Below, piece by piece: positions 21,833 through 56,600 of a stretch of DNA of 64,000 bases. Source of the DNA: Squalus acanthias (lineage: Eukaryota); NCBI GenBank assembly GCA_030390025.1, contig CM059431.1, positions 100,938,001-101,002,000 of the forward strand, read 5' to 3'. A model generated the notes under the pieces. That model saw only the letters and a list, made by a program, of their open reading frames with translations. It made no database searches and was not told where the DNA came from. The translations under genes were made by a program, and so were the position numbers. Position 1 is the first letter of the stretch; each line of letters opens with the position of its first letter.

Positions 21833-23143
21833 CATATCGCTCACTCTGTCACAAATGACATCCTTTGTGACTGTGACAAAGGTAAACTATCCCTCCTCGT
21901 CCTTCTTGACTTGTCTGCAGCCTTTGACACGGTTGACCACTCCATCCTTCTCCAACGCCTCTCCACCGTCGTCCAGCTGGGTGGGACTGCACTCGCCTGG
22001 TTCCATTCTTATCTATCTAATCGTAGCCAGAGAATCACCTGCAATGGCTTCTCTTCCTGCTCCCGCAAAATTACCTCTGGTGTCCCCCAAGGATCTATCC
22101 TTGGCCCCCTCCTATTTCTCATCTACATGCTGCCACTTGGCGACATCATCCGAAAACACAGCGTCAGTTTCCACATGTACGCTGACGACACCCAGCTCTA
22201 CCTCACTACCACTTCTCTCGACCCCTCCACGGTCTCTAAATTGTCAGACTGCTTGTCCGACATACAGTTCTGGATGAGTAAAAATTTTCTCCAATTAAAT
22301 ATTGGGAAAACCGAAGCCATTATTTTCGGTCCCTGCCACAAACTCCGTTCCCTGGCCACTGACTCCATCCCTCTCCCTAACATCTGTCTAAGGCTGAACC
22401 ACACTGTTCGCAACCTTGGTGTCATATTTGACCCTGAAATGAGCTTCCGACCACATATCCGCAGCATAACAAAGACCGCCTACTTCCACCTCCGTAACAT
22501 CACCCGTCTCCGCCCTTGCCTCAGCTCATCCGCTGCTGAAACCCTCATCCATGCCTTTGTTACTTCTAGACTTGACTATTCCAATGCACTCCTGGCTGGC
22601 CTCCCACATTCCACCCTACGTAAACTTGAGGTCATCCAAAACTCTGCTGCCCGTGTCCTAACTCGCACCAAGTCCCGTTCGCCCATCACCCCTGTGCTCG
22701 CTGACCTACATTGGCTCCCGGTTAAGCAGCGCCTCGATTTCAAAATTCTCATCCTTGTTTTCAAATCCCTCCGTGGCCTCGCCCCTTCCTATCTCTGTAA
22801 TCTCCTTCAGCCCCACAACCCCCCGAAATATCTGCGCTCCTCTAATTCTGGCCTCTTGAGGGTCCCTGATTATAATCGCTCAACCTTTGGTGGCCGTGCC
22901 TTCTGTTACCTAGGCCCTAAGCTCTGGAATTCCCTGCCTAAACCTCTCCACCTCGCTACCTCTCTTTCCTCCTTTAAGATGCTCCTTAAAACCTATCTCT
23001 TTGACCAAGCTTTTTGGTCACCTGCCCTAATTTATCCTTATGTGGCTCGGTGTCAAATTTTTTGTCTTAAAATACTCCTGTGCGGCGCCGTGGGACGTTT
23101 TACTACATTAAAGGCACTATATAAATACAAGTTGTTGTTGTTA
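21833..23143 (+). mobile_element. L2 LINE, 5'-truncated, RT region largely open (ORF 21800-23170)
   Basis: LDLSAAFDTVDH, GVPQGSILGPLLF, YADDTQLY, SRLDYSN, LHWLPV; (GTT)n tail. Confidence 0.95.
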
Positions 23144-24944
23144 CACAGAGCCAACATGCCTCTGTACTAGAGTTTAAGGATTGACTGGTTCTACATCTTC
23201 TATGGTTGTTTCCACAGGGCTCTGTTGTCAAGGAAATCTTGGAAAGTAGAGTACCTGGCCTGTCTGGTTGCTGTTGGTCCGCATCTTCCTTAGCCTATGT
23301 ACCAAACCATGACCTCCGCACCTCTGATTTTTTCCCCATCTCCTGTCCTCCACCTTGGGAGGCTAATTTAAATATTGACTCCAGCAAGAGCTAGGACTGA
23401 AGTGCCAAACTTGAAGTCCCTGTAGTGTGCAGCCTACAAGAAACTGTTTTAACAGCAGAACCAATGGAACAGAATTTAGTTCTCTTTGCTGCCATGATGG
23501 TAAGCAGTAGCAAACTCCCTGCTACCCTCAATGGACTTGGGTAACCTGTATAGACTGTCAGCAAAGTCAGAGCTATCATTCGTATCCTGGCTCCTAATAT
23601 TCATCCATTAGACTACGTTGGACTGGTCGTCTCCCAGGATATGTTTAAAATATGATACACCTTATTCTGGAGATTGGACCACAGCTTCAAAGGCAAAGGG
23701 AAATTTCGGAAATAGCACATTAGGAGTCAAAGGCTTTTTCATGGATAGCATTTTTTTTTGGCATCCTGGATGATGTTCCCCTTCTCTAGCCCAGCAGCAC
23801 TAAGGTTAGTTGTAGCACATTTACTATTACACTACCAGAGTTATGATGATCTGGAATTCACTGCCTGAAACTGTGAAACTGTGGTGGAAGCAGATTCAAC
23901 AGTAACTTTCAAAAGGGAATTGGATAACTACTTGAAAAGGGAATATTTGCAGGGCAGGTGTGAGTGGGACTAATTGGAGAGCTCTTTCAAAGAGCCGGCA
24001 CAGGCACGATGGGCCAAATGGCCTCCTTCTGCGCAGTATGGTTCTATACCCCAGCAAGAGTCAGTGCCTTCAAGAGAGAAGGACTGCAATAAGTCAGTGA
24101 TTGCGTATATATACATCTCGTATCAAAGCATAAAGCCACAAAGGGAGTTTAAGAAAAGTCTTACACTACAAGACAATTAGAAATTGTTTTTTGCCATTAA
24201 TTCATTAAGCAGTCTTTAAAAGTGGCACCTGAACAATAGCACTCATACAAAGAGCAGCAGGGTTAGTCACAGGATGGCACATTCCAAAGATTTAATCAGT
24301 GTTATGAATATACGTGTCGAGACACTGCATTCCAATGTTGTTAAATGTAAACCAGGTCAACAACAGTGTGAGACGGCAACACGATAGGGAAATAAGACTC
24401 TCGCATTTATGCTAACACTTGGTCCAATCTTTGAAGCTGGCAGACTAAATTTCAATTTAATTAAGGAAAAAAATTCAAAATTTAGGAAAAAAAAGGGACC
24501 GTTAACTTGCTAAAATTAACTAATGTAATAGACACGGATTGGAAACCGAATGAAATTATTTACTGCATTGTACGAGGGTATGCTGCATACTTAAGTGTTA
24601 CACGCACACACACACGTCTTGAAAGTTTTAGCAACAAGTGTTTATATATGTGCTTTATATAGTGCTTTATATATTCAAGACCACACACATGTTGGCATAC
24701 AGGTCTTAGTAGCTCTCCGCTAGATCTCCCACATGACCTTTCTGTGTCCATTATAGATTACAAGCTTTGGTAGGTTACTCAACTTTGGGTGGGTGAAGAG
24801 ATGACCTTAATTCTGTTCTGAATTGATTTGCATGGATGCATATTTTCCAGCAGGGATCACTAGGTTAGAGAGGTGAGGAATGGGAAGTCTAGCTGATTTT
24901 GCTCCTGCCAAGTCCAGAGTACTGAGGAAAACGATAGCATCCCA

Positions 24945-25640
24945 TCAACAACAACTTGTATTTATATAGCACCTTTTAATGTAGTAAAAATGTCCCAGGG
25001 TGCTTCACACGAGCTTCATCAGACAAAATTTGACACCATGCCTCATAAGGAGACATGAGGATAGGTGACCAAAAGCCTGGTCAAAGAGGTAGGTTTTGAT
25101 GAGCGTCTTTACGGAGGGAAGAGAGGTAGAGAGGTGGCGAGGTTTAAGGAGGGAATTCCAGAGCTTGCAGCCTAGACGGCTGAAGGCACGGCCGCCAATG
25201 GTGGGGTGAAGGAAATCGGGAATGCGCAAGAGCCCAGAATTGGAGGAGTGCAGAGATCTCGGAGTGTTGTAGGGCTGGAGGAGGTTACAGCGATATGGGG
25301 GGGGGGGCGAGGCCACGGAGGGATTTGAAAACAAGGACGAGACCATCAATTTTAGGATAAAGGGTCGCCCTTTTAGAACTGAGATGAGGAGGAATTTCTT
25401 CTCTTAGAGGGTCGTAAATCTGTGGAATTCTCTACCCCAGAGAGCTGTGGAGGCTGGGTCATTAAATACATTTAAGGTGGAGATAGACAGTTTTTGCAAG
25501 ATAAGGGAGTGAAGGGTTATGGGGAGTGGGTGGGGAAGTGGCTTTGAGCCCAAGATCAGCCATGATCTTATTGAATGGCGGAGCAGGCTCGAGGAGCCAA
25601 GTGGCCTATTCCTGCTCCTATTTCTTATGTTCTTATGAAT
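24945..25640. mobile_element. L2 3' fragment (-, 24945-25340) abutting a CR1 tail (+, 25350-25640)
   Basis: Homology to other copies. Confidence 0.8.
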
Positions 25641-25782
25641 GTGCAGAAACCATGGAGCTAGTCAGTATAGGGAAAATGACCTACATCGGCTCACGATCCG
25701 ACAATACCTTGATTTTAAAATGCTCATCCTTGTTTTCAAATCCCTCCATGGCCTCAACCCTCCCTATCTCTGTAACCTTCTA

Positions 25783-28245
25783 GTCTAGTGAACCTTCATT
25801 GCACTCCCTCTAAGGGGCAAGTATATCCTTCCTTAGGTAAGGAGACCAAAACTGTACACAGTACTAGAGGTGTGGTCTCACCAAGGCCCTATATAATAGC
25901 AGTAAGACGTCTTTACTCTTATACTCCAATCCTTTTGTAATAAAGGCCAACATACCATTTGCTTTCCTAATTGCTTGCTGTACCTGCATGTTAACTTTCT
26001 GTGATTCGTGTACAGGGACACTCAGGTCCCTCTGAACACCAACATTTCCCAATCTCTCACCATTTAAAAAATACTCTGCTTTTCTATTTTTCCTACCAAA
26101 GTGGGTAACTTCACATTTCTCCACATTATATTCCATTTGCCACGTTCTTGCCCACTCACTCAATCTGTCTATATCCCTTTGCAGCCTCTTTGCGTCCTCC
26201 TCACAACTTACTTTCCCACCTAGCTTTGTACCATTAGCAAACTTGGATACATTACACTCGGTCCCCTCATCTAAGTCATTAATATAGATTGTAAATAGCT
26301 GAGGCCCAAGCACTGATCCTTGCGATACCCCACTAGTTGCAGCCTGCCTACCTGAAAATGACCCATTTTCCTACTCTCTGTTTTCTGTCCGTTAACCAAT
26401 CCTCAATCTATATTACCCACAATCCCATGAGCCCTAATTTTGTGTAATAACCTCTTGTGTGGCATCTTATCGAATACTTTTTGAAAATCCAAATACACCA
26501 CATCCACTGGTTCCCCCTTATCTACCCTGCTAGTTACAACCTCAAAAAACTCTAACAGATTTGTCAAACACGATTTCCCTTTCATAAATCCGTGCTGACT
26601 CTGCCCAATCATATTATGATTTTCTAAGTGCCCTGTTACCATGACCCTAATAGTAGATTCTAGCATTTCCCTACTAACTGGTCTATAGTTCCCTGTTTTC
26701 TCTCTCTCCTTTCTTAAATAGCGTGGTTACATTTGCTATCTTCCAATCCCCGGGGACCGTTCTAGAATCTAAGAATTCTGGAAGATCAAAATCAATGCAT
26801 CCACCATCTCTGTAGCCACCTCTTTTAGAATCCTAGGCCATCAGGTCCAGGGGATTTGTTGGCTTTTAGTCCCAGTAATTTCTCCAGTACTATTTCTTTA
26901 CGAATACTAATTTCTTAAAGTTCCTCATTACATTAGACCATTGGTTCCCCACTATTTCTGGAATGTTTTTTGTGTCTTCTTCCATGAAGACAGATACAAT
27001 GTATTTGTTTCATGTCGCTGCCATTTCCTTATTCCCCATTATAATTTCTCCTGTCTCTGCCTGTAAGGGACCCACGTTTACTTTCGCTAATCTCTTCCTT
27101 TTTAAATATCTATAGAAGCTTTTACAATATGTTTTCATGTCTCTTGCTAGTTTACTCTCATATTCTCTTTTCTCTCTCTTTATCAATTTCTTGGTCATCC
27201 TTTGCTGAATTCTAAAATCCTCCCAATCCACAGGCTTACTACTTTTTTGGCAACATTATAAGCCTCTTCCTTTGATCTAATACTATCTTTAACTCCTTAA
27301 GGGAATGTATATTTGTTGCAAATTATGAATTGTTTCTTTAAATGTTTGGCATCGCTTATGTACCGTCATATCTTTTAATATAGTTTCTCAATCTACTTTA
27401 ACCAACTCGCCTCTCATACCTACGTAGTTTGCTTTGTTCGGATTTAAGACCCTAGTTTCGGACTTAACTAAATCACTCTCAAACATAATATACAATTCTA
27501 TCATATTATGATCACTCTTCCCCAGAGGCTCCTTTACTACAAGGTTATTAATTATTAATTAACCTGTCTCATTGCACAATACTAGATGTAAAATAGCCTG
27601 TTGCCGAGTTGGTTCCTCGACATACCGATCTAGAAAACTATCTTGAATGCATTCCATGAACTCGTCCTCCGCACTATTACTACAAATTTGGTCTGCCCAG
27701 TCTATATGAAAATTAAAGACCCCATGATCACTGTATTACCCTTGTTACACGCACCTCTAATTTACTGATTTATACTGTGCCCAACACTACAACTACTGTT
27801 AGGGGGCCTATAAACTACTCCCACCAGTGTGTTCTGCCCTTGTTGTTTCTTAGCTCCACCCAAACTGATTCTACTTCTTGGTTTTCGGAGCTAAGATCCT
27901 TTCTCTCTACTGTCTTTATCCCATCCTTTATCAGGGCTACCCCGCCCTTCCTTTTCCATTTTTCCTATCCCTTCTAAAAGTCAAGTATCCTGGAATATTT
28001 AGTTCCCAACCTTGGTCAACCACATCTCCGTAATGGCTATTAGATCAAACCCATTTATTTCTATCTGTGCTATTAATTCATCTATTTTGTTGCGAATGCT
28101 TAGCGCATTCAGATACAGTGCCTTTAGCTTTTATTTTTTTCTGTTTTTCCCTGATGTCACCTTAGTTACTAATGCCCTATTACCTTTGTCAAGCTCTCTG
28201 TCCCTTCCTGACCCACTGTGCTTATTTTTACCCAAATCACTACTC
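25783..28245 (-). mobile_element. CR1 LINE ORF2 (endonuclease plus RT), degraded, lacking its 3' tail
   Basis: ORFs 25864-26313, 26403-26666 and 27010-27231 closely resemble the CR1 at 14983-17985. Confidence 0.9.
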
Positions 28246-28839
28246 GAGCGGAACTAGCTGAGTTTGAAACATAGAATATACTGCAGAGTAAAATCCTCTC
28301 CACCTTGCTACCCAGTGTCATCATAGGACTGGACAAGGCTTAGTATAGAATATGACTGGGTTGATACCTTTTGATCTTTACGTGACATGCAATGTTTAAC
28401 ACTGATTTAGTACCTTCATGTAACATTATCCAAACGAACAGTCCATGAACTGGGAGTCAAGCAGGTTTCATTATACAGTGTGAGTCTCGGTAATACATCA
28501 CCTGCTGAAGAAACTGCCCAAAATATCAGGAACAAGAGACATTTTTCATTTTCCTTTGCTAAACACGTGCTTTTCTTTCCGACGTGCAATACCTTTTGTC
28601 GCTGTGTAAGTGATACTTTCAATTCTATTTCACACGGGTATTTAGAAAAGGTTCGGGAGTCCTGCTGAAAATGATACCAAAAATGGTGGTATGGGATTTG
28701 AACTGGAAAAGAAAGATTTCAGAATCTAACTTGGCAAGGGTGCAACATTGGCAGATACAAGAGAACTCAGTTGGAAATGTCACTTCAAGAAACAAAGTAT
28801 AGCATATTGTGCTCTTTAACTCTTTGAAGGAAATTCTCA

Positions 28840-29405
28840 TCGATTTTTAAATTCTCATCCGGTTTTCAAACCACTCCACGGCCGCGCCCCTCCCTATCTC
28901 TGTAATCTCCTCCAGCCGCACTACCACCACCCCCCCCCCCCCACCCCCACCACCGAGATATCTGCGCTCCTCCAATTCTGGCCTCTTGAGCATCCCCAAT
29001 TTTAATCGCTCCACCATTGGCGGCCGTGCCTTCAGCTGTCTAGGCCCTAAGCCCCGGAATTCCCTCCCTAAACCTTTCCGCTTCTCTACCAACGTTCCCT
29101 ATAAGGTGTGCTTCTCTGCCGGTCCGACGCAGCCTGGGACCGTCTTTTTCAATTTAAAGTTTTGCGCATGTGTGAAATGGTGAATGATCTGCGCACCCCA
29201 AAAAAATAAGAGGAACATTGCTCTCCACCTCTCTTTCCTCCTTTAAGACACTCCTTAAAACCTACCTCTTTGACCAAGCTTATGGTCACCTGCCCTAATA
29301 CCTCCTTATGTAGCTCGGTGTCAAATTTTGTTTGATAACGCTCCTGTGAAGCGCCTTGTGATGTTTTACTACATTAAAGGCGCTATAAATGCAAGTTGTT
29401 GTTGT
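28840..29405 (+). mobile_element. L2 3' fragment with nested MITE
   Basis: L2 tail sequence interrupted at 29090-29220. Confidence 0.85.
29090..29220. mobile_element. hAT-like MITE (131 bp)
   Basis: Imperfect TIR CAACGTTCCCT / GAGGAACATTG; 8-bp flanks TTCTCTAC / CTCTCCAC, each one change from the L2 target CTCTCTAC. Confidence 0.7.
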
Positions 29406-29777
29406 AATAAAAATATTATATTTCTTACATACATGGGAAAAAGTCAAATTAAACGTGATGAAATTTTCTTGGAATATACCATTCAATGTTTGATGAGACT
29501 ACCCTTTCCTTTACTACAAATTTATTGAGTAAATTTATCCCCTTAAATGTATTTGTCTACCAACATGCTTATGAGTAGCCAAAGCAAACACTTCACTCAC
29601 TGATTACACAGTGTCATGTAAGGTCACCTGAAGGATAGGGTGGATTATATATAGTCTGTGGAATTTGGTGGTCTGAATGGAGTTTTCTTATAATATACAC
29701 ACCAGCCAATCTCCCAATGCACTGCATACAGGGAGCCAATACCAAGTGTAGTTTTTGGAAGTGTAGGGTTTAGAGAA

Positions 29778-30170
29778 AAGAAAGACTTACATTTATATAG
29801 CACCTTTCACGACCACTGGACGTCTCAAAGCGCTTTACAGCTATTGAAGTACTTTTTTTTTGGAGTGCAGTCACTGTTGTAATGTGGGAAACGCGGCAGC
29901 CAATTTGCGCACAGCAAGCTCCCACAAACAGCAATGTGGTAATCTGTTTTTGTTATGTTGATTGAGGAATAAATTTTGGCCCAGGACACCGGGGATAACT
30001 CCCCTGCTCTTCTTCGAAATAGTGGCCGTGGGATCTTTTACATCCACCTGAGAGAGCAGACAGGGCCTCGGTTTAACGTCTCATCCGAAAGACGGCACCT
30101 CCAACAGTGCAGCGCTCCCTCAGCACTGCACTGGAGCGTCAGCCTAGATTTATGTGCTCAAGTCCCTGAG
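29778..30170 (-). mobile_element. Deu-SINE
   Basis: Homology to other copies. Confidence 0.85.
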
Positions 30171-30749
30171 GGGCTAACTGGAAGAAAGAGGGAGGAGGAG
30201 GAGACGCTATTTTGTACCGGGAGTTGCAATAGCTCAAGCCTGATTTCTGCAGCAGCAGGTAAGTTAAAATCGGGCTAAAGACATTGTTGTCACATTTAAA
30301 TCTTGCTATTTTTAGCTCTACTTCTTCTGCTTAACTCTGACTGGCTCAAATTTATTTATAAACGTATAATAAACAATATATAAATGTGTCCAAACTTCTA
30401 GCAGTTGATTGGTCAATAACAAATTGTTTCTCACCTCAATCAAATTCCTTCCAACTAACCGATCAATTCATTCCACCTCCTGCAAATATCTTCTAGCTAA
30501 CTGGTGACAGGCAAATTTATTCATTGAGGTTCACTCATATTATTGGATGAGCAAAAAACTCATCAAACAAACCAATGAAAAATTGCACCAAAATTCCAAC
30601 TCCTTTTGTCCGCCATTTTTCTCTCAGTAATCAGGAGTTGTAACATCTAAAATAAAGATTTAAAACAAATGGATCTAAAAGTATAATTTCACATAACGAC
30701 TTATCCCTTAAATAGTTTTTTCTTAATACCTTCATTAACGTTTTTACTT

Positions 30750-31296
30750 CACTTGTTAGGCCCAGGCTGGAGTATAGCGTCCAATTCTGTGCACTTCAGG
30801 AAGGATGTCAAGACCTTGGAGAGGGTGCAAAGAAGATTTACCAGAATGGTGCCAGGCTCGAGGAACTTCAGTTACGCGGAGAGACTGGAGAAGCTGGGGT
30901 TGTTCTCCTTAGAGCAGAGAAGGTTAAGGTGAGATTTAATAGAAGTGTTCAAAATCATAAAGAGTTTTGATAGAGTAAATAAGGAGAAACTGTTTCCACT
31001 GGCAAGAGGGTCGGTAACCAGAGACACAGATTTAAGGTAATTGGCAGAAGAACCAGAGGGGAGATGAGGAGAATTTTTAGTTGTTGTGATCTGGAATGCA
31101 CTGACTGAAAGGGCGGTGGAAGCAGATTCAATGGTAACTTTCAAAAGGGAATTGGATAAATACTTCAAGGAGTAAAATTTGCAGGGCTATGGGGAAAGAG
31201 TAGGGGAGTGGGACTAATTGGAGAGCTCTTTCAAAGAGCAGGCACAGGCATGATGGGCCAAATGGCCTCTTTCTGTGCTGTATCTTTTATGATTCT
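30750..31296 (+). mobile_element. CR1 3' fragment
   Basis: CR1 C-terminal region; ends TGTGCTGTATCTTTTATGATTCT. Confidence 0.85.
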
Positions 31297-31569
31297 GAGG
31301 CTTCATCCAGTCACAAAAACTTGGGCTTAAAGTTGATATAGGTGTCCCACAGATATCATTAAGTTAGCTTTAGGGAGGTGACACAGTCTGAGCATGTGAG
31401 GTGCTCGCAATTTCCCACCACGCATTATTAGGACTTTCTCACTGCAACTGAAACGCTGTTTATCTTGTGAGAGAATCTCTGACTTTCTTTTTCAAATGAT
31501 TCCAAAAGACACTGGAGAAAAAAATGTAATTAGTGGAAAGCCCCCTGTCTCTTCATTATGAGTTCACAT

Positions 31570-32770
31570 AAAAGACTTGCATTTATATAGCGCCTTTCAC
31601 TACCTCAGGACGTCCAAAGCGCTTTACAGCGAATGAAGTACTGTTGCAATGTAGGAAATGCGGCAGCCAATTTGCGCAATGTGACAGCAATGTGATAATG
31701 ACCAGATAATGGCCCAAAAATTCGGCCATTCTCGGGTGAGTACACAGTCCGTACTCAACCGTATTCATTCCCGAAGTGCCGGTTTCCTGCATGCACTGCG
31801 CATGCGCGGGAAACCGGAACTTCCGGTATGGTGAAGGGGCGGTTCCTAGGTGAACCGCGTGCGCGGTAGAGGCTGCGCGCACGCAGCACACTTAGATTTT
31901 TTTTCAGGTTTCAACGCGAGGGTAAGTATTGAAGATTCTACGCTAATAAAAAGGAGGCGTAAGACCCCTTTTGAACAAGGTAAGTAGTTAATTAAGTATA
32001 ATTTTAAATTTTTTTCAACAGGTTTATCTTTTTTAGATACTTTAAAGAAAGGTAAGTTTATTTTTATAACTTTTAAAAAGTATTTTAATTTTTTCAAAAA
32101 TTAAAATTTTTGTTTAAAGTGGTTAATTTATTTAACTATAGTTATTTTATAAATGTGATGGTTTTTTAAAAATTTATTTGAAGTTTAGCTGTTCTTTTGG
32201 GGCCGATTTCAATTCACAGATTTGACAGGTCTCCTGTCAAATCTATGAATGAAAGATGGTCTGCTGCCATTGGCTCTCCATGGCCCACGTGATCCCAGGG
32301 GTCGCATCGCACTAACTGCGCCCCTGGAACACGCAAGCACTGCGCGCCGGCACTTGGGAGAGGCCCGGGACCCGAAGTTCCTGTGGGCCCAAAACACAAC
32401 GGCAGGCGCGGTGGGTAAGAGCGCGCGCGATCCTTACCCCCGCGGCAAGCCGGCCACGCGAATTTCTAGGCCAATATGTTCGAGTGAAGTTGCTTGAGGG
32501 ATAAATATTGGCCAGAACACCAGGGATAACTCCCCAGCTCTTCTTCGAAATAGTGCCATGGGATCTTTTACATCCACCTTAGAGGGCAGACGGTGCCTCG
32601 ATTTGATGTCTCATCCGAAAGGCGGTACCTCCCACAGTGCAGCACTCCCTCATAAGTACTGCACTGGGAGTGTCAGCCTAGATTTTGTGCTCAAGTCTCT
32701 GGAGTGGGGCTTGAACCCACGACCTTCTGACACTGAGGCAAGGGTGCTACCAGCTGAGCCACGGCTAACA
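31570..32770 (-). mobile_element. Deu-SINE split by a MITE
   Basis: The SINE breaks at ACCAGATAAT and resumes after 32472. Confidence 0.85.
31711..32472. mobile_element. Non-autonomous DNA transposon, same family as 15616-16358
   Basis: Ends GGCCCAAAAATTCG / CGAATTTCTAGGCC, AAT direct repeat on both sides; AT-rich core is the reverse complement of ~15880-16100. Confidence 0.85.
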
Positions 32771-32919
32771 CTTAACATGTGACACATATAGGAAATATTT
32801 TTTTCTTTTTCAGTCAAATAACTCACAGTTTCAGCAGTGTTGGAATTGACTAAGGATGGAGGGATGAATGTTTTGAAGGTGGAGGTAGGGAATCCTGCTG
32901 ATGTACCAGATGGTTTGGG

Positions 32920-33365
32920 TGGCCTTCCATCCTCCACCCTCTATAAACCAGCTCCAAAACCCTACCCTGCAACGTCCCGTTCACACATCACCCCCTGTGC
33001 TCGCTGACCTACATTGGCTCCCAGTCCCTCAATGCCTCCAATCCCTTCATGGCCTTGCCCCTCCCTATCTCTGTAACCTCCTCCAGCCTGACAACCTGTA
33101 TTCCTCCAACTCTGGCCCCTGTACTTCCCCATCCTCTTTCGCCCCTCCATTGGTGGCTGTGCCTTCAGCTGCCGAGGCCCTAAGCTCTGGAATTCCCTCC
33201 CTAAACCTCTCCGCCTCTCTAACTCTCTCTTCTCCTTTAAGATGCTCCTTAAAACCCACCTCTTTGACCAAGCTTTTAGTCACCCCTCCTAATATCTCCT
33301 TCTTTGGCTTAGTGTTGATTTCTGTCTGATTGAACTTCTGTGAAGCACTTTGGAACGTTGTTCCA
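32920..33365 (+). mobile_element. L2 3' fragment (older)
   Basis: PVLADLHWLPV...HGLAPPYL. Confidence 0.8.
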
Positions 33366-34877
33366 ACAACAACTTACATTAAAACGTCCCACAGTAAAAA
33401 TAACTATAGTAGAATAAATTGCAATTCAAATAATTACTTCTGGCTGATATATATTCCTCTTTTCTATAAATGGTTGTAACGTTACTGATGATCACTGATG
33501 CCATTTACTCACTCACTAATCACTCTTTTTTTCCAGTCCAGAGGAAGGAAGACATAAAACAAATTTCCAAAGAAGGAAAAAAAAAAGAATGGACTGATGT
33601 ATGTATTTCAATGCGAACAGTAAAAGAAAAACACATTGGTCAAAGAAAAGGTAGGAAGTAGCTGTTTGAGATTTGCCAGACTAGATTTAGTTACTTGGCT
33701 TTTGGACTGTGGGAATGAAGGGAATACAACACCCCAGAGACCTGTCAACAAGTGGCTAGGTGGCAGTCTGATGCCTCCCCTCCCCTCCAGCCAGGAAAAA
33801 ACCGGCGAGCCCCTCCTGCAGGATATGTCAAACAGGAAGGAAGAAGAAGGCAGAGACCGAACACTGTTTCATAAGCCCAGGCTGTTACTGATGAACGTCA
33901 AACTGTCAATTCAGCGCATACCAACAACATGTCGTTAAAGTTTTTTTCTGTTCTCTCTCTTTCTCTTGGGGGGCGGGGGGGGGGGGGGGGGAGAGAAGTT
34001 ACAGCTGTTTATTTTATTATTGAAGTAAAAAACAAATATACCTTTATTCTTTTTCTATATAGATGCAAGTCTTTTCTTTCTAATTTTCAACGGCCCCATT
34101 TCAAAAATACTTAAACGGTCATTTCAAGAGATCAAATGTCTGTAACAAGTAGGCTCCTTCTAGCTGTATAAGATGTACTGTATTTTCTAATTATCACCTT
34201 TTAAGGGTCCAGCTGGGCTCCATTGTTCACCAACAGGGGGCAATTCCATTTGCATTGCTCCTAGACTTAGTCATGATCAAGCAGTCTGGTGGTGAAGTTC
34301 ATTAGACATAAGGGCCACACTATTACAGCTAACAACAATACTAATACAATATACACTGTATCTGCTACCCAGCTGCTAGCAGCGGAGCGGATAGGCAGGA
34401 TATGTTCTCCTTCTCGCAGTCTTAAGCGACTTCAATTCCTACTTTATCCGAGTCCCCACCCCCCAAAAAAAAATTAACTGATAAGAGTAAAAGAAAACCC
34501 ACAATAAGGATTTGTGTCAACTGGGATCATTTGATTAGAAAGAGGCATTACAAAGTGTTAAAATCATTTGTTGCCCCTCATCTCAGGAAAGTCAAATCAA
34601 TGCATAATGAGTTGTTTACTGGAGCAAATTCGTCCACAACATCTAATAGGTGTTAATTACATTAGAAGTAAAATTCTTTCATCCTGGCCGTTTGATCTGA
34701 TGTCATTTTCCCATGAGAACCCTACAGCTTCCTGTATTCATTAGAATTTGGCATTTGCAGGTCCAAATGCTTAAAGCAAGATGAAAATATTTATTACAGT
34801 CGAGTTTTCAATAAAATGGAAGCATCTAAAGGTCCGTTGGCTCTGAGAGTTCATTCCGGTGACAACAATGCAATAGA

Positions 34878-44934: not shown

Positions 44935-45316
44935 TCACTTGCCACAGAATACCCAGCATCTGACTAGCTTTTGTAGCCACATCACTTATCTGGCTGGTCC
45001 AGTTAAGTTCCTGGTCAATAGTGACACCCAGGAAGTTGATGGTGGGTGATTCAACTATAGTATAGACATTGAATGACAAGAGGAGGTGATAGACTCACTC
45101 TTGTTGACAGTGGTCATTGCATGGCACTAGTGTGGTGCGAATGTTACTTTTCACTTATCAGCCCAAGCCTGGATGTTGTCCAGGTCTTGCTGCATGTGGC
45201 CGCGAACTGCTTCATTATCTGAGAAATTGAGAATGGTACTGAACACTGCAATCATCATTGAACATCCCCACTTCTGACCTTAAGATGGAGGGAAGGTGAT
45301 TAATGAAGCAGCTGAG
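44935..45316 (-). mobile_element. Older RT fragment of the LINE family at 53666-57553
   Basis: Reverse complement aligns by eye with ~56665-56985. Confidence 0.75.
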
Positions 45317-46032
45317 AGGGGAATAGAGGGTTATGCGGATAGAGTTAGATGAGGAAAGACAGGAGGAGGCTTGAGTGGAGCATAAACGCCGGCATGGACT
45401 GGTTGGGCTGAATGGCCTGTTTCTGTGCTGTATATCCGATGTAAAAAAAGTGCGTGTGTATGTACGATGTCAGGACTGGGCTTGGATTACCATCCATGCA
45501 ACTGCTGCTCCCCATCCTCCTGTCCACCACCCCTACCTCCCCCCAGTCTCCCACCAACTCTACCCAAGAAACACCGCTCCTTTGCAATGTCTCACCCATC
45601 TCCCTGCCCCACCCAGCCCTCTCAAAGCTCAGCTTATCCATGAGACCCACCTCCTGCCACCTCGATCCCCTTCCCGCTTCAATTCCTAACCACTCAACTT
45701 CCATTCCTGGCCCCATGCTAGCTGATGTCAATAGTTCCCTTCCCTCAGACCCCATCCCTCGCCCCTTCAAAACTACCATCATCACCCCCTCCTTAAAAAA
45801 AACATTCTTTGCCCATCCATCCTCTCTAACTACTATTCCATTACCAAACTCCTTTTTAATTTACAATAGGCTGCTTCCTTTACTGCTGTTGATCACTTTG
45901 CAATTGACTGCAGTGAGGAAGCCCCTAGCTTTCAACAGTTTAACAGCGTTCAAGATCCTTAGTAACAGTGGTCGTCAGGGCCAAAGTTGCTCATGGTGTA
46001 AATGTAGGAATGGCAGCATATAGGAGATTACA

Positions 46033-48710
46033 GTGTCAGCCGTGGCTCAGTGGGTAGCGCACTCGCCTCTGAGCCAGAAGGTCATGGGTTCGATTCGAGT
46101 CCCATTCCAGAGAACTGAGCACAAAATCTAGGTTGACACTCCCAGCGCCAGTACTGAGGGAGTGCTGCACGGTCGGAGATGCCGTCTTTCAGATGAGACA
46201 TTAAACCAAGTCCCCGTCTTGTTGAGGTGCCTTTCATGACCTCAGGATGTCCCAAAGCGCTTTACAGCCACTGAAGTGCTTTTTAGGTGTAGTCACTGTT
46301 GTAATGCTGGAAACGCAGCAGCCATGTTGCGCACAGCAAGCTCCCACAAACAGCAATGTGACAATGACCGGATAATCTGTTTTAGTGATGTTGGTTGAGG
46401 GATAAATATTGGCCACGACACCGGGGATAACTCCCCTGTTCTTCTTCGAAATAGCGGCCGTGGGATCTTTTACAGCCACCTGAGAGAGCAGATGGGGCCT
46501 CGCTTTAACGTCTCATGCGAAAGACGGCACCTCCGACAGTGCAGCACTCCCTCAGCACTGCACTGGAGTGTCAGCCTAGATTTTTGCGCTCAACTTTCTG
46601 AAAAGTTCAAACAACAATTAACTAACAAACAGATAAAATTCGTATCTCGTGCAGAGCTTTATGCTTAAAATGCACCAGTTTTGTATGAATTCCCATATTT
46701 AAGTGTCCCAAATCATTTATAATATAACTGTTAATGTCATTCAAATATATCATAAATATTCAGCAGGCCAGGCAGCATCCATGGAGAGAGAAACAGAGTT
46801 AACGTTTCAGGTCTGTGACCCTTTGTCTGTTTTTGTTTCGGATTCCAGCGTCCCCAGTATTTTGCTATTGTACCATAAATATTACCCGTTTACAAATGAA
46901 TGAGTTATTAATTACAGCCATGTCCACACAGTCATTGGTTAGCTCATCGTGAAAGACCACTCCAACAACTTTCACAATTCACCACACATCTACCTATATC
47001 ACATCTCTGCAGTCAGCATATATTGGTCTCACTCTTGGAACATCGTGGTTTTGCACTTGACCAACACAGGTTTGCTCTGGGGTAAACGGGAGCTCAGTTG
47101 TAAATATTTTTGATAATGATGGAACTTTTGAAAACATGGCTCTGTCCTTCACATCAAAAGTCTGCAACTTTCAGCTGCTGTGCTGAACCAGATTGCCCTA
47201 TCATAATGGGCAACACAAATAAGAGAATTGCACTCACCCATGTTCAGAAATGCAGGGACACTGCACCAGGATTTGGACAACAGCCTTAATGAAATTCACC
47301 AATATGTAGAAATATAAGACAACAACTTGCATTTGTATGGTAGTTAAAAGTCCCAAGGCGCTTCACAGGAGCGCCATCAAACAAAATTTGACATATTAGG
47401 ACAGGTGACCAAAGCTTGGACAAAGAGGTAGGTTTTAAGGAGCGTTTTAAAGTAGGAGAGAGGGGTGGAGAGGTTTAGGGAGGGAATTCCAGAGCTTAGG
47501 GCCCAGGCAGCTGAAGGCACGGCCGCTAATGATGGAGCGATGGAAATCAGGGATGCGCAAGAGGCCAGAATTGGAGGAGTGCAGGGCTGGAGGAGGTTAT
47601 GTGGCTCATTGTCAAATTTTGTTTGCTAATACTCCTGTGAAGCGCCTTGAGGCATTTTATTACGTTAAAGGTGCTGTATAAATGCAAATTGTTGTTGTTC
47701 AGCTGGGCAGCTTTTGGGGCTCTACAAATGACCCCCAGACTAAGAAGGTCAGAAATCGACCAGTGTTCCATCCCGCTCTGGCTTGCTGTACGGTGACCTA
47801 GCTCTTGATCATTCGTCTGTGGATAATATAGGAGAACAGAACTAGGCTTGTCTATGTTGCTCTCCATGGTTCAAAACCCTACCAATTCTCACGGACTAGG
47901 TTCATTCATGAAGAAAGACCACTTGGGCAAGGTACCATAGAGCCACCGCCAACTGTGTGACTGTACCACAGTAAAAGAAAGAAAGGCTTGCATTTGTATA
48001 GCACCTTTCACATCCTCAGGATGTCCCAAAGCACTTTACAGCCAATGAAGCACTTTTTTTTTAAAGTGTAGTCACTGTTGTAATGTAGGAAACACGGCAG
48101 CCAATTTACGCACAGCAAGGTCCAACAAACAGCAATGTGATAATGACCAGATCATCTGTGTTTTTTTAATGTTGGTTGAGGGATAAATATTGGCAAACAC
48201 ACTGGAGAGAACGCCTCTGCTCTTCTTCGGAATAGTGCCGTGGGATCTTTTACGTACATCTGAGAGGGTAGACGAGTTATGGGTGCCAAGTCCTACTCCA
48301 GAGACTTAAGCACACAATCTAGGCTGACACTCCCAGTGCCAGTACTGAGGGAGTGCTGCACTGTCGGAGGTGCCATCTTTCAGATGAGACGTTAAATCGA
48401 GGCCGGGGGCGTCTGCCCTCTCAGATGGACGTAAAAGATCCCATGGCACTATTTCGAAGAGGAGCAGGGGAGTTCTCCCCGGTGTCCTTGCCAATATTTA
48501 TCCCTCAACCAACATCACTAAAACAGATGATCTGGTCATTATCACATTGCTGTTTGTGGGACCTTGCTATGCGCAAAGTGGCTGCTGTGTTTTCTACATT
48601 ACAACAGTGACTATACTGTACTTCAAAAAGTACTTCATTGGCTGTAAAGCGCTTTGGAACGTCCTGAGGTCGCGAAAAGCGTTACAGAAATGCAAGTTCT
48701 TTCTTTATTT
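46033..48710. mobile_element. Inverted Deu-SINE pairs (46033-46590, 47975-48710), back-to-back L2 tails (47320-47700) and a Penelope end (46760-46870), with unique DNA between
   Basis: Homology to other copies; orientation switches are visible in the sequence. Confidence 0.75.
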
Positions 48711-49117
48711 CTTTCCACATAAATATCTCCCTATTACTTGATCGTGCAGCAGCCACTCAGCCAAGACTGACCTGACCCAAGGCAAATTTAGCAATTTGTA
48801 GCACCACCTTCTGGCAAAGCTGGTTTTAGCAGGTCCGATTTGATTTCATTACAGTGAAACATCGCCATATTAATCTCCTGATGCAGCAAGCAAAATGAAA
48901 TACACTCTAGAATCTCCTGGATAAATTTAAAACAAAATCACATTAGGTGTTGGAACAAACTCATATGCATCTATCACAAAAAAACCAATAACTTCATCTT
49001 TATTGGTGAATATTGTTCTGCAGCAGATAAATAATGCTTCATTTAGCCTCATATGAAAAGGGGATTTATGCGCCAATGACACACTGCCTTATTTAAATGT
49101 TTTGTTCAAATGGTCTA

Positions 49118-49720
49118 GCAACAACTTGCATTTATATAGCGCCTTTAATGTAGTAAAATGTCCCAAGGCGCTTCACAGGAGCGATTATCAAACAAAATTT
49201 GACACCGAGCCACATAAGGAGATATTAGGACAGCTGACCAAAAGCTTGTACAAAGAGGAAGGTTTTAAAGAGCGTCTTCAAAGAGAGAGAGGCGGAGAGG
49301 TTTTCGGAGAGAATTCCAGAGCTTAGGGCCTTAGCAGCTGAAGGCACGGCCGCCATAGGTGGAGCGATTAAAATCGGGAATGCGCAACAGACCAGAATTA
49401 GAGGAGCACAGATATCTGGGGGGCGGGGGGGGGGGGCGGTTGTAGGGCTGGAGGAGTTTACAGAGATAGGATGGGGCGAGGCCATGGAGGGATTTGAAAA
49501 CACGGATAAGGATTTTAAACATGAAGCATTGCCGGACCGTGAACCAGTGTAGGTCAGCGAGCACAGGGGCAATGGTGAACAGGACTTGATGCAAGTTAGG
49601 ACACGGGCAGCAAGTCTTGGATGATCTCAAGTTTATGGAGGGTGGAAGGTCGGTCAGGAGAGCATTGGAATAGTCGAGTCTGGAGGTAAAAAAAGGCATG
49701 GATGAGTAGTTCGAAATGAT
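49118..49720 (-). mobile_element. L2 3' fragment
   Basis: TSRLDYSNALL...LADLHWF. Confidence 0.85.
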
Positions 49721-49891
49721 GGCTTGGTACAGCAAAGTGCTCACTTCTGTAAGGCAGAAGTTGACCTCCAGACAGAGGTGATATTGAGTAACAAAGTGAA
49801 AAATTCTCAGATACCAAGAGCCATAACACATGTAAAGAAAAATGAGAAGTCGCACAACACCAGGTTATAGTCCAACAGTTTTATTTAAAAT

Positions 49892-49926
49892 TACGAGCTT
49901 TCGGAGCTCCGCTCCTTCTTCAGGTA
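49892..49926 (-). ncRNA. Minimal type I hammerhead ribozyme motif
   Basis: TAC-CTGAAGA-A-GGAGC-GGA-GCTCC-GAAA-GCTC-GTA on the minus strand. Confidence 0.75.
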
Positions 49927-51991
49927 CAGGTAGTGAGGGAATCTATTACACAGTATATATACACAGAGAACAATTTGTCTGCAGAGATACAATCTGTTAG
50001 GGAGGCATTACATCAAAGACACATCAGAGTACAGCTAAGACAATGAGGTGGGTCACAGGGGGTCCAACGTGTCAAATGCTGCCGTCTGCAGTTAAGCTTT
50101 TAACTTTTTTTTTGTGTTTTTTTTTAAAAACTGGAAAGACAGACAACGATGTCGAGTCACGTTCTGTAGCGTGACATGAACCCGAGATCCCTATTGAGGC
50201 CGTCCTCATGGGTGCGGAACTTGGCTATCAGTTTGTGCTCGATGATTTTGCATTCTCGTGTGTCTCGAAGGCCGCCTTGGAGAACGCTAACCCGCAGATC
50301 CGAGGCTGAATGTCCTTGACTGCTGAAGTGTTCCCCGACTGGGAGGTAACAATCCTGCCTGGCGATTGTTGCGCGGTGTCCGTTCATACGTTGTCTCAGT
50401 GTCTGCATGGTCTCGCCGATGTACCATGCCGCGGTGCATTCTTTCCTGCAACGTATGAGGTAGACAACGTTGGCCGAGTCACATGAGTATGTACCATGTA
50501 CCTGGTGGGTACTGTCCTCACGTGTGATGATGGTATCTGTGTTGATGATCTGGCATGTCTTGCAGAGGTTGCCGTGGCAGGGTTGTGTGGTGTTGTGGTC
50601 GCTGTTCTCCTGACAGCTGGGTAATTTGCTGCGAACGATGGTACTTTTGAGGTTAGGCGGCTGCTTGAAGGCGAGTAGTGGAGGCGTAGGGATGGCCTTA
50701 GCAAGGTGTTCGTCGTCATCGATGACATGTTGAAGGCTGCGAAGAACATGGCGTAGTTTCTCCGCTCTGGGGAAGTACTGGACGACGTAGGGTACTCTGT
50801 TGGTTGTGTCCCGTGTTCGCCTTCTGAGGAGGTCTATGCGGTTTTTCGCTGTGGCCCGTCGGAACTGTCGATCGACGAGTAGAGTGTCATATCCCGTTCT
50901 TACGAGGGCGTCTTTCAGCGTCCGTAGGTGTCCATCGCGTTCCTCCTCGTCTGAGCAGATCCTGTGTATTCGCAGGGCTTGTCCATAGGGGATGGCTTCT
51001 TATAACGTGGTTAGGGTGGAAGCTGGAGAAGTGGAGCATCGTGAGGTTGTCCGTGGGCTTGCAGTAGAGTGAAGTGCTGAGGTGTCCGTCTTTGATGGAG
51101 ATTCGTGTGTCCAAGAATGAAACCGATTCTGAGGAGTAGTCCATGGTGAGTTTGATGGTGGGATGGAACCTGTTGATGTTATCGTGTAGTCCTTTCAGTG
51201 ATCCTTCGCCGTGGGTCCAAAGGAAGAAGATGTCGTCGATGTATCTGGTGTACAGCGTTGGTTGGAGGTCCTGTGCAGCGAAGAAGTCTTGCTCGAACTA
51301 CGTCAGGAGAACAGCGACCACGACACCACACAACCCTGCCACGGCAACCTCTGCAAGACATGCCAGATCATCAACACAGATACCATCATCACACGTGAGG
51401 ACACTACCCACCAGGTACATGGTACATACTCATGTGACTCGGCCAACGCTGTCTACCTCATACGTTGCAGGAAAGAATGCACCGCGGCATGGTACATCGG
51501 CGAGACCATGCAGACACTGAGACAACGTATGAACGGACACCGCACAACAATCGCCAGGCAGGATTGTTACCTCCCAGTCGGGGAACACTTCAGCAGTCAA
51601 GGACATTCAGCCTCGGATCTGCGGGTTAGCGTTCTCCAAGGCGGCCTTCGAGACACACGAGAACGCAAAATCATCGAGCAGAAACTGATAGCCAAGTTCC
51701 GCACCCATGAGGACGGCCTCAACCGGGATCTCGGGTTCATGTCACGCTACAGAACGTGACTCGACATCGTTGTCTTGTCTTTCCAGTTTTTAAAAAAAAA
51801 CACACAAAAAAAGTTAAAAGCTTAACTGCAGACGGCAGCATTTGACACGTTGGACCCCCTGTGACCCACCTCATTGTTTTAGCTGTACTCTGATGTGTCT
51901 TTGATGTAATGCCTCCCTAACAGATTGTATCTCTGCAGACAAATTGTTCTCTGTGTATATATACTGTGTAATAGATTCCCTCACTGTACCT

Positions 51992-52028
51992 TTACCTGAA
52001 GAAGGAGCGGAGCTCCGAAAGCTCGTAA
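51992..52028 (+). ncRNA. Minimal type I hammerhead ribozyme motif
   Basis: Helix I TTAC/GTAA, core CTGAAGA, helix II GGAGC/GCTCC, GAAA, palindromic helix III AGCT, predicted cleavage after CUC (52024). Confidence 0.8.
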
Positions 52029-52094
52029 TTTCAAATAAAACTGTTGGACTATAACCTGGTGTTGTGCGACTTCTCACTTTTGTCCAACAAACAC

Positions 52095-53210
52095 GACATA
52101 GAATTACATAGAATGTACAGCACAGAAACAGGCCATTCGGCCCAACTGGTCCAAGCCACACGAAACTCCTCCCACTCCTCTTCATCTGACCCAATCAGCA
52201 TAACCTTCTCTTCCTTTCTCCCTCATGTACATATCTAGCTTCCCCTTAAATGTATTTACACTATTCGCCTCAACTACTCCTTGTGGTAAGGACTTCCACA
52301 TTTTCACCACTCTCTGGGTAAAGAAGTTTCTTCTGAATTCCCTATTGGATTTATTAGTGACTATCTTATATTGATGGCCCCTAGTTTTGTTCTTCCTCAC
52401 AAGTGGAATCATCTTCTCTACTTCCACCCTATCAGCTCCAGTTCAAAATCAGCTCCTGGTAACTATGGAATGACCTGTGCTGGAACATGTGCAGGATTGT
52501 AGTCGGCTGTGATGCGCCGAGGGTCAAAGTGCGTGTCAACACTTATTACCAAGGCTCACAGATGGGAATGAATCTGCTTCCACTGTGGAACTATATCCCA
52601 GGCCGAGTCAGAATTTTAAAAGAGGATGTAACCTCAAGACACTTTCCCTTCTTATCTTTTGCCCGGAGAGCAGAGGTCAAGCCATATCCAATGCCACAAT
52701 TTAATTCATCCAAAGACATCACTGTAGAAGAGATCAGTACAACGTCCCAGGAAGCAGACACTGGGTGAGGCCATGGCTCAGTGGGCAGCACTCTCACCTC
52801 AGAAGGTTGTGGGTTCAAGTCCCATTCCAGGGACTTGAGTACAAAATCTAGGCTAACACTCCTAGTGCAGCATTGCGGGGGTGCTGCACTGTCGGAGGTG
52901 CCGTCTTTCGAATGAGATGTTAAACTGAGGCTCCGTCTGCCCTCTCAGGTGGACGTAAAAGATCCCATGGCACTATTTTGAAGAAGAGCAGGGGAGTTCT
53001 CCCCCGGTGTCCTGGGCCAATATTTATCCCTCAATCAACACCTAAAAACAAATTATCTGGTCATTTATCTCATTGGTGTTTGTAGGAGTTTGTTGTGCGC
53101 AAATTGGCTGCTGTCTTTCCGGCATTACAACAGTGACTATACTTGGCTGTAAAACGCTTTGACACGTTCGGAGGGCGTGAAAGGTGCTATATAAATGCAA
53201 GTCTTTCTCT
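52095..53210. mobile_element. CR1 tail (-, 52095-52435) and Deu-SINE (+, 52768-53210)
   Basis: Homology to other copies. Confidence 0.8.
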
Positions 53211-53665
53211 TTTGGAGTATTTAAAATCTCTCCTATACAACAGATTTATAAGTAATAGTGATATATTACTTTTAAGGATGTGCACATGAACTGCAGTTGA
53301 GGAAAAGTTGCTCTGAAATTGCCACGAGGAGGTGTACAACAGCAACCTAGGGAAGATTTTCTCCTGAATTTTCCTCTTCACTTAACCCTCTCTAAGGCAA
53401 ACTAACAGGTGTCCCCACAGCTAGACAGGTGTGATTACAGGGTACAGGGGACAGACATACAATGAGACCTTTCCCAACCAGTGGGAATGGTAGCATAGTG
53501 GTTCTGACTCTGTTTCTCTCTCCACAGGTGCTGCCTAACCTGCTGAGTATTTCCAGCATTTTCTGTTTTTATTTCAGATTTCCAGCATCCGCAGTATTTT
53601 GCTTTTGTTTTGTGTTTGTAGTAGCATAGTGATTATGTTACTGGACTAGTGATCCAGAGGCCTGG

Positions 53666-56600
53666 GCATGACCTGTCCCATCGGCAGGACAGACCCACCA
53701 GAGGTGGTGAAACAGTGGTATACAGTCAGGAGGGAGTGGCCCTGGGAGTCCTCAACATTGACTCCGGACTCCATGAAGTCTCATGGCTTCAGGTCAAGCA
53801 TGGGCAAGGAAACCTCCTGCTGATTACCACCTACCACCATCCCTCAGCTGATGAATCAGTACTCCTCCATGTTGAACACCCCTTGGAAGAAGCACTGAGG
53901 GTAGCAAGGGCACAGGATGTACTCTGGGGGACTTCAATGTCCATCACCAAGAGTGGCTTGGTAGCGCCACTACTGACTGAGCTGGCCGTGTCCTGAAGGA
54001 CACAGATGCCAGACTGGGCCTGCGGCAGGTGGTGAGAGAACTAGGACGAGGGAAAAATCTACTTGACCTCGTCCTCACAATGACAGTATTCGTAGCAGTG
54101 ACCACCGCACAGTCCTTGTGGAGATGAAATCTCGTCTTCACACTGAGGACACCCTCCATCGTGCGATGTGGCACTACCACCGTGCTAAATGGGACAGATT
54201 CAGAACAGATCTAGCAGCTTAAAACTGGGCATCCATGAGGCGCTGTGGGCCATCAGCAGCAGCAGAATTGTGTTCCACCACAATCTGTAACCTCATGGCC
54301 TGGCATATCGCTCACTCTGTCACAAATGACATCCTTTGTGACTGTGACAAAGGTAAACTATCCGTCCTCGTCCTTCTTGACTTATCTGCAGCCTTTGACA
54401 CGGTTGACCACTCCATCCTTCTCCAACGTCTCTTCACTGTCGTCCAGCTGGGTGGGACTGCACTTGCCTGGATCCATACTTATCTATGTAATCGTAGCCA
54501 GAGAATCACCTGCAACGGCTTCTCTTCCCACTCCCACATCGTAACCTCTGGTGTCCTATTTCTCATCTACATATTGCCCCTTGGTGACATCATCCGAAAA
54601 CACAGCGTCAGTTTCCATGTATGCTGACGACACCCAGCTCTACCTCACTGCCACTTCTCTCGACCCCTCCACGGTCTCTAAATTGTCAGACTGCTTGCCC
54701 GACATCCAGTTCTGGATGAGCAGATATTTTCTCCAATTAAATATTGTTTTCGGTCCCCGCCACAAACTCCGTTCCCTAGCCACTGACTCCATCCCTCTCC
54801 CTAACATCTGTCTGAGGCTGAATCACACTGTTTGCAACCCTGATGTCATATTTGACCCTGAAACGAGCTTCCAACCACATATCCGCAGCATAACCAAGAC
54901 CGCCTATTTCCACCTCCGTAACATCGCCCGTCACCACCCTTGCCTCAGCTCATCCGCTGCTGAAACCCTCATCCATGCCTTTGTTACCTCTAGACTTGAC
55001 TATTCCAATGCACTCCTGGCCGGCCTCCCACATTCCACCCTACGTAAATTTGAGGTCATCTAAAACTCAGCTGCCCTGTGTCCTAACTCGCACCAAGTCC
55101 CGTTCACCCATCACCCCTGTGCTCACAGACCTACATTGGCTCCCGGTTAAGCAACGCCTCGATTTTAAAATTCTCATCATTGTTTTCAAATCCCTCCATG
55201 GCCTCGCCCCTCCCTATCTCTGTAATCTCCTTCAGCCCCACAACCACCCCCACCCCGAGATATCTGTGCTCCTCTAATTCTGCCCTCTTGAGCATCCCTG
55301 ATTATAATCGCTCAACCATTGGCGGCCGTGCCTTCTGTTGCCGAGGCTCTAAGCTCTGGAATTCCCTTCCTAAACCTCTCCGCCTCTCTTTCCTCCTTTA
55401 AGACGCTCCTTAAAACCTACCTCTTTGACCAAGCTTTTGGACACCTGCCCTAATTTCTCCTTATGTGGCTCGGTGTCAAATTTTTTGTCTTATAATACTC
55501 CTGTGAAGCGCTTTGGGACGTTTTACTACGTTAAAGGTGCTATATAAATACAAGTTGTTGTTGTTGTTACCATCAAGCCAGGGGCCCAACCCTGGTTCAA
55601 TGAGGAGTGTAGAAGAGCATGCCAGGAGCAGCACCAGGCGTACCTAAAAATGAGGTGCCAACCTGGGGAAGCTGCAACACAGGACTACGTGCATACTAAA
55701 TAGCGGAAGCAGCATGCTATAGATAGAGCTAAGCGATCCCACAATCAACGGATCAGATCAAAGCTCTGCAGTCCTGCCACATCCAATCGTGAATGGTGTT
55801 GGACAATTAAACAACTAACGGGAGGAGGAGGCTCCATGAATATCCCCATCCTCAATGATGACGGAGCCCAGCACGCGAGTGCAAAAGACAAGGTTGATGC
55901 ATTTGCAACCATCTTCAGTCAGAAGTGCCGAGTGGATGATCCATATCGGCCCTCTCCTGCGGTCCCCACCATCACAGAAGCCAGTCTTCAGCCAATTCGA
56001 TTCACTCCACGTGATATCAAGAAACGGCTGAGCGCACTGGATATAGCAAAGGCTATGGGCCCCGACAATATCCCAGCTGTCGTGCTGAAGACTAGTGCTC
56101 CAGAACTAGCTGCGCCTCTAGCCAAGCTGTTCCAGTACAGCTACAACACTGGCATCTACCCGGCAATGTGGAAAACTGCCAAGGTATGTCCTGTCCACAA
56201 AAAGCAGGAGAAATCTAATCCGACCAATTACCGCCCCATCAGTCTACTCTCAATCATCAGCAAAGTGATAGAAGGTGTCGTCGACAGTGCTATCAAGTGG
56301 CACTTACTCACCAATAACTTGCTCACTGATGGTCAGTTTGGGTTCCGCCAGGACCACTTGGCTCCAGACCTCATTTCAGCCTTGGTCCAAACATGGACAA
56401 AAGAGCTGAATTCCAGAGGTGAGGTGAGAGTGACTGCTCTTGACATCAAGGCAGCATTTGACCGAGTGTGACATCAAAGAGCCCTAGTAAAATTGAAGTC
56501 AATGGGAATCAGGGGGGAAACTTTCCACTGGCTGGAGTCATACCTAGCACAAAGGAAGATAGTTGTAGTTGTTGGAGGACAATCATCTCAGCCCCAGGAC

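Follow-up and report, generated by a model that had tools for sequence, protein, structure and literature searches.

The stretch of DNA considered here is 64,000 nt of Squalus acanthias contig CM059431.1 (positions 100,938,001 to 101,002,000, forward strand; hereafter the window, numbered from its first letter), and it holds two plus-strand copies of a long interspersed nuclear element (LINE), which we take to be of the L2 clade, that begin at the same base behind the same 15 nt of a different LINE. The clade name is our assumption, following an earlier reading of the sequence made without database searches, and no database match names the clade. We refer to the copy at 21848-23142 as c22, to that at 54319-55568 as c54 and to a short, independent plus-strand L2 at 754-1180, which serves as a control within the window, as c754. 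The surroundings are repeat-rich vertebrate DNA, 52% of the window matching elsewhere in the window. Here, we describe these elements and the LINE that hosts c54, and argue that c22 and c54 are a well-preserved local capture event of a known kind, not a parent-daughter pair.

The two L2 copies

L2 elements in this window have short tandem-repeat (GTT)n tails and no long target-site duplication, and 13 further truncated copies accompany the two of interest. The best 120 protein matches to their reverse transcriptase (RT) are 40-59% identical, the named ones being teleost RT proteins, and no close shark L2 protein was found in this protein search, the best match standing at 59%. The better preserved of the pair is c22, which carries the RT domain from VTNDIL, matches RVT_1 (E = 3e-21) and keeps an ORF2 frame open for 395 codons from 21833, whereas c54 has decayed through deletions, frameshifts and one stop. 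The in-frame fusion of host LINE and L2 might suggest a functional chimera, a candidate that we rejected, as such a fusion is a 1-in-3 coincidence and the first part of the RT is lacking; the Pfam match of the fused frame starts at profile position 62 of 205. Nor is there significant purifying selection between the two copies (27 of 69 differences synonymous against 0.30 expected, P = 0.064).

Aligned from the 15-mer to the tail, c22 and c54 show 79 differences in 1252 aligned bases (6.3%). The alignment bears out what the earlier, sequence-only reading had noticed, namely that c54 has deletions without counterpart in c22; these are of 27 (the GVPQGSILGP region), 2, 18 and 8 nt, and c54 also has insertions of 1 and 7 nt relative to c22. 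The 8-nt deletion recurs in four other L2 copies of the window, and a further L2 (28840-29405) is interrupted by some 130 nt of unrelated sequence at a CCTCTC repeat, the place where other copies have this recurrent deletion. Identity peaks at the junction, the first 60 bases from 21833 being identical (P = 0.018) and only 2 differences falling in the first 125 (P = 0.009), both by permutation and post hoc. A further alignment of L2 copies misplaced the row L2a and the 5′ part of the copy c35, and distances for both were left unused. Elsewhere, a head-to-head L2 at 47340-47699 combines a minus-strand 3′ piece with a plus-strand tail piece, with overlapping coverage, and looks like a 5′-inverted insertion.

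The host LINE and the shared junction

The second copy lies within another plus-strand LINE, whose 5′ part (53618-54318) comprises the remnant of a tRNA-like head (53618-53675) and coding sequence up to the residues HIAHS, and whose 3′ part (55569-57553) comprises RT (RVT_1, E = 3e-10), a 3′ untranslated region and an A-rich tail. The host is contiguous on both sides of c54 and, where it resumes at 55569 (TIKPG…), lacks two codons that related proteins have; c54 is thus a primary insertion into it, with a loss of 4-6 nt at the target site. The closest named proteins to the host are those of Heptranchias perlo (79-86%) and Heterodontus francisci. Its head has a box-A-like motif at 53622 and no B box, with a deletion that reaches into the coding region, and the same tRNA-like head, here with a B box, is joined to the host's 3′ tail in a short minus-strand element at 1511-1930, which resembles the host LINE minus its middle.

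The sequence-only reading had reported that the same 15 nt and the same L2 truncation occur at 21833 and 54304, and this is confirmed by a search of the whole window with up to three mismatches, in which the 27-mer CATATCGCTCACTCTGTCACAAATGAC is found, exactly, at these two places and nowhere else (0 of 100 shuffles gave any match). In both it consists of 15 nt of the foreign LINE followed by L2 cut at the identical base, and the 15-mer alone, again with up to three mismatches, has the same two places in the window and no third. At 54304, as that reading had held, these letters continue the frame of the host LINE (…ICNLMAWHIAHS) and read HIAHS. At 21833 there is indeed no host; the captured 15 nt (21833-21847) are joined bluntly, without microhomology, to the minus-strand 3′ tail of an older L2 (about 21670-21832), which stands head-to-head with c22 and stops exactly at the junction. 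This tail has an internal deletion near 21787/21788, with a loose contig end at 21788, and no continuation of it was found after 23142. The right flank of c22 resembles neither L2 nor the host LINE, and a target-site duplication was looked for at the 22-kb site and not found. Just to the left of the truncated tail lies a GC-rich element (21277-21654) with an internal palindrome (21559-21615), of which a second copy, 72% identical, is found at 12611-12975.

A further likeness in the sequence-only reading, that both copies end in …GTTGTTAC, is present and of little weight, being a match of just 2 nt past the (GTT)n tail; although AC follows none of 13 other L2 tails among those listed, we rejected it as evidence of kinship, as a match by chance has a probability of about 1 in 16. 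We also rejected an independent origin of the same junction twice, there being no microhomology that joins host and L2 at that point, and an assembly artefact, the copies being 6.3% divergent and a contig of run X1 equalling 23118-23500 without difference.

The identity of the 15 nt was approached through contigs of four of 21 listed runs (X1, X9, X17 and X21), aligned to 21600-23500 at 88% likeness, in which the places where contigs come loose were taken from the best 24 of 9122 rows (the six best supported in each run), and through proteins. X1 matches the unique flank without difference. Upstream of 21848, ordinary L2 runs on into …GAAACGGCTCTCATCAAA (loose ends in 117 contigs of X1 and 268 of X9), and of 120 L2-type proteins, 89 could be parsed, 88 with HSTE and 1 with NSTE before V/I-x-ND, the other 31 having been missed by the pattern. 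HIxHS occurs in none of the 120. Fourteen related loci at 40-51% identity are informative solely for this upstream motif. The possibility raised beforehand, that the 15-mer belongs to the L2 consensus, is thereby refuted: the 15 nt are host-LINE sequence. Among host-family proteins that cover the site, the residue is Pro in six of eight (HIPHS), Ser in one and Ala in one; both window copies read Ala, which is probably a mutation of the 54-kb locus that was carried to 22 kb.

Subfamily letters along c22

Whether c22 as a whole could have come from c54 was judged from a table of differences against the four runs, of which 40 of 168 rows were listed (28 of them inside c22) and which itself warned that some differences were uncounted. 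Letters of c22 were classed as diagnostic where the other letter's share in X9 was at least 0.9 and lay at least 0.12 above its share in X1, bearing in mind that contig depth is not copy number. Eleven of the 28 listed letters are of this subfamily type, making up 17-72% of the depth in X1 and at most 8% in X9, with shares in X17 and X21 similar to those in X1, and we read them as letters of a younger, genome-wide L2 subfamily. At these 11 sites c54 has the old letter at eight, the letter of c22 at one (22612), a third letter at one and a gap at one. Of the c22 letters classed as private, c54 covers 15 and has none, and two more fall inside a c54 deletion.

The same picture is obtained within the window, where seven sites between 22750 and 23140 join c22 with c754, two of them variable among older copies, versus one that joins c22 with c54. 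In a nine-row tree of the 3′ part, which left out the copy c28 and the minus-strand tail, c22 pairs with c754 at 98/94, and a clade of c22 and c54 is rejected by the approximately unbiased test (p-AU 0.021). Because its 3′ 880 nt carry the letters of another subfamily and group accordingly in the tree, c22 does not descend from c54 over its full length. On this reading the 3′ body of c22 with its (GTT)4 tail (22264-23142) belongs to the younger subfamily, as c754 does, and c54, with its (GTT)5 tail, to an older one.

These results divide the claims of the sequence-only reading. The sisterhood of the two copies, which it proposed to test, fails in the 3′ tree; its derivation of c22 from the 54-kb locus holds for the junction and the 5′ end, and not for the 3′ 880 nt. 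Retrotransposition of a read-through RNA that carried the whole element, as in 5′ transduction, is contradicted by the old letters of c54 at eight of 11 sites and by the rejected clade. Local copying of DNA likewise cannot explain the whole element, although the 32-kb distance would favour a DNA route over an RNA one. The reverse transfer, from 22 kb to 54 kb, was rejected, c54 lacking the younger letters at eight of the 11 sites and sitting in a contiguous host.

All 11 diagnostic sites lie at or 3′ of 22264; among the listed rows there are none for the first 416 nt of c22 (P = 0.014 if they were uniformly spread). On these letters, solely the 5′ end, that is, the 15 nt and an L2 tract of at most 416 nt, can stem from 54 kb, and the switch between sources would fall in the 5′ part of the element, 21848-22263. 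The tract taken from 54 kb would be either a short one or a longer one that was copied soon after the insertion of c54.

How the chimera may have formed

The letters of the two copies show c22 to be a mosaic and the transfer to have run from 54 kb to 22 kb; the invasion, the DNA template and the timing are what we infer. In the reading that we favour, and consider probable, c22 is a chimera that owes its origin to strand invasion, one-sided and homology-directed, resembling synthesis-dependent strand annealing (SDSA). The insertion of an L2 into the 54-kb host LINE came first. At 22 kb, a bottom-strand 3′ end that was growing leftward would then have paired with c54 within its first 416 nt and been extended on 54-kb DNA, past the start of the L2 and over 15 nt of the host LINE. 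Once released, the extended strand would have been joined bluntly to the chromosome end on its left, leaving the older minus-strand L2 truncated. The invading end may have been cDNA that a younger L2 was producing by target-primed reverse transcription, an identification that we hold tentatively, or, more doubtfully, the end of a resected break in a copy already inserted; the two versions share one polarity, and nothing in the data tells them apart. What resulted is a dead, 5′-truncated LINE for which no function is likely.

The template was probably DNA rather than RNA, the main argument being that donor and product lie 32 kb apart. For a random insertion, a position within 32.5 kb of the donor has a probability of about 1-3 in 100,000 (with an assumed genome of 2-6 Gb). 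When the window is compared with itself, no unique flank proves to be duplicated, left or right, nor are there collinear unique flanks that would be the signature of a segmental or tandem duplication; at offsets of 26-39 kb the comparison shows the L2 pair, multi-copy repeats and nothing else.

Several points weigh against strand invasion as set out here. The rule that separates diagnostic from private letters was set after the table had been seen, and 22861 is a borderline case; at 22612, c22 and c54 have a diagnostic letter in common. No L2 letter private to the two copies is visible in the supposed tract among the listed rows, so that the case for the tract is made by the junction, by the 15 nt and by the absent diagnostics. 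The shared Ala also occurs in one of eight related host proteins (P0127) and is hence not unique. The distance of 32.5 kb, non-random as it is, exceeds the 5-kb class of confident donors in a published survey (PMC2671141) and lies far past the usual donor distance there, as it does past the 15 bp of tumour data. The empty site was not seen in any run, nor was a joint of 21832 to 23143 among 15 of 4412; the longest flank contigs of the relatives X17, X21 and X9 fit only from 23260, 23352 and 23350, and such absent cover proves nothing. As judged from the same contig limits, the sequence beside the c22 tail (23143-23350) may be rearranged between species.

A last point against it is that the host has a tRNA-like head and, on the plus strand, no run of four T (T4) between 53612 and 54727, which lends itself to an RNA template switch, the rival that survives best and one that we consider unlikely. 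Here, during reverse transcription of a younger L2 RNA, the enzyme or its cDNA would have changed over to a read-through RNA from the 54-kb locus, stopping once 15 nt of host had been copied. The first T4, at 54727, corresponds to 22285, beside the first diagnostic letters (22264 and 22281), and a read-through RNA from the head to the first ~410 nt of the L2 would span exactly the diagnostic-free interval; chimeras of two RNAs are, moreover, known for L1 (PMC11702581). Such a switch leaves the improbable 32-kb proximity unexplained unless the putative RNA stayed local, and the host head has no B box today.

Decidedly unlikely, in our view, is that the whole 54-kb L2 with its 15 nt was copied to 22 kb and that its 3′ 880 nt were later gene-converted by a younger L2. 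This would account for the junction and for the exact (GTT)n end, c22 and c54 share 22612C and 19 letters with c754 against older copies, and the two have decayed similarly (branch lengths 0.028 and 0.039), but two rare events are required. Copying without the conversion is contradicted by eight of the 11 diagnostic letters, by the tree and by the absence of shared private letters (0 of 15).

An unequal crossover of an earlier 22-kb L2 with c54, giving a 32-kb tandem duplication from which a later deletion left 15 nt, we regard as quite improbable. The direct orientation and 93.7% identity of the copies are suitable for it, the order of the chimera is right (the 5′ end of the 54-kb copy, then a younger 3′ end with its own flank), and a deletion would have cut the older L2 at the junction, as is seen; however, no low-copy remnant of a duplication is found at offsets of 26-39 kb, and the second breakpoint must fall 15 nt from the L2 end. 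Finally, a dispersed composite subfamily with two members in the window by chance, the junction in many scattered copies that the sequence-only reading had considered, is very improbable indeed: no loose end at 21833 is among the six best-supported rows of any run (a weak test, covering the best 24 of 9122), the plain L2 end at 21848 is among those rows in two of the four, c54 has contiguous host on both sides, and chance neighbours would need thousands of copies. Searches for the junction 27-mer in metagenome contigs (0 matches) and for the L2 5′ 30-mer in viral and genome contigs (0 in each) are uninformative for a shark repeat.

To return to strand invasion, a wider form of it, which we consider unlikely, is that nascent L2 cDNAs in repeat-dense shark genomes routinely complete their integration by seeking out and invading homologous L2 copies tens of kilobases away. 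If true, new copies would take over the truncation point of a neighbour together with a few flanking bases, and neighbouring pairs with a shared 5′ junction would be countable fossils of the germline homology-search distance, a process that shuffles L2 subfamilies. A bolder version still would have as acceptor a transcript made by RNA polymerase III from the tRNA-headed host LINE and terminated at the first T4.

Other elements of the window

At 49838-50614 and 52081-51302 an inverted repeat of 780 bp (97.9%) surrounds an RT-like stretch, the whole of which (49838-52081) looks to us like a young retroelement of Penelope type whose 3′ part is inverted; two of its open reading frames gave no Pfam match. 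A 321-codon open frame at 62657-63622, directly downstream of tandem repeats (62190-62458), matches a GDSL-like esterase (E = 3e-9), a domain that occurs in ORF1 of some LINEs. A purine-rich 15-nt tandem repeat (GAGGAGGACGCAGAA-like) occupies 58440-58560.

Comparison with known systems

A single dead insertion with no evident function is of modest significance in itself. It does illustrate that the same truncation point need not mean parent and daughter, and that subfamily letters need checking along the length of an element; it also offers a genome-wide test, namely a search for neighbouring LINEs whose 5′ junctions agree while their bodies do not. No such chimera in a shark L2 is reported in the literature that we searched, mostly non-subscription and without supplements, and the supplements of preprints may hold more distant-donor cases.

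The closest parallel is with chimeric L1 insertions. Chimeric L1s with duplicated genomic DNA are described in a long-read preprint on tumours (10.1101/2024.08.27.596794), which cites Gilbert et al. 2005 for cDNA that pairs with nearby homologous DNA in an SDSA-like process. As in these chimeras, the 5′ end of c22 runs into sequence that was probably copied from genomic DNA, and the mosaic has the same make-up, with a body from one source and a 5′ end and flank from a genomic donor left intact. The chimeras described there are of human L1 in cultured or tumour cells, the tumour templates being under 250 bp and within 15 bp of the site, whereas here an L2 is fixed in a shark-type genome, the donor is 32 kb off and homology is provided by another L2 subfamily.

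Repair-mediated duplications offer a second comparison. Pace et al. 2009 placed 824 of 1,136 captured segments at most 5 kb from their donor, farther ones not being classed confidently (PMC2671141). The likeness lies in the conservative capture of nearby DNA at a break, with a deletion at the acceptor and no target-site duplication; their set comprises segments of at least 50 bp primed by short microhomology, unlike the 15 nt of non-homologous DNA found here, at 32 kb and primed, as we read it, by one-sided, long LINE homology. In zebrafish, L2 5′ junctions often have extra bases templated from flanking DNA (PMC4760211; PMC4245944), and here too an L2-clade 5′ junction has extra bases that were probably copied from DNA in end joining; for the 22-kb copy, unlike the zebrafish ones, the template would lie 32 kb off, at another copy's junction, and would also have set the truncation point.

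SVA elements provide an example of 5′ transduction. As in that process, and in two-RNA chimeras, the upstream flank of the source travels with the new copy (15 nt here); the differences are that the body of c22 has another origin than the source copy and that donor and product are neighbours. Experiments with L1 have yielded both DNA-templated and two-RNA chimeras (PMC11702581). Set beside these systems, the 22-kb element would be a clean germline L2 example, from a cartilaginous fish, of a repair route whose descriptions come mainly from human L1 in cells and tumours; its donor is more distant than is usual for SDSA-type capture.

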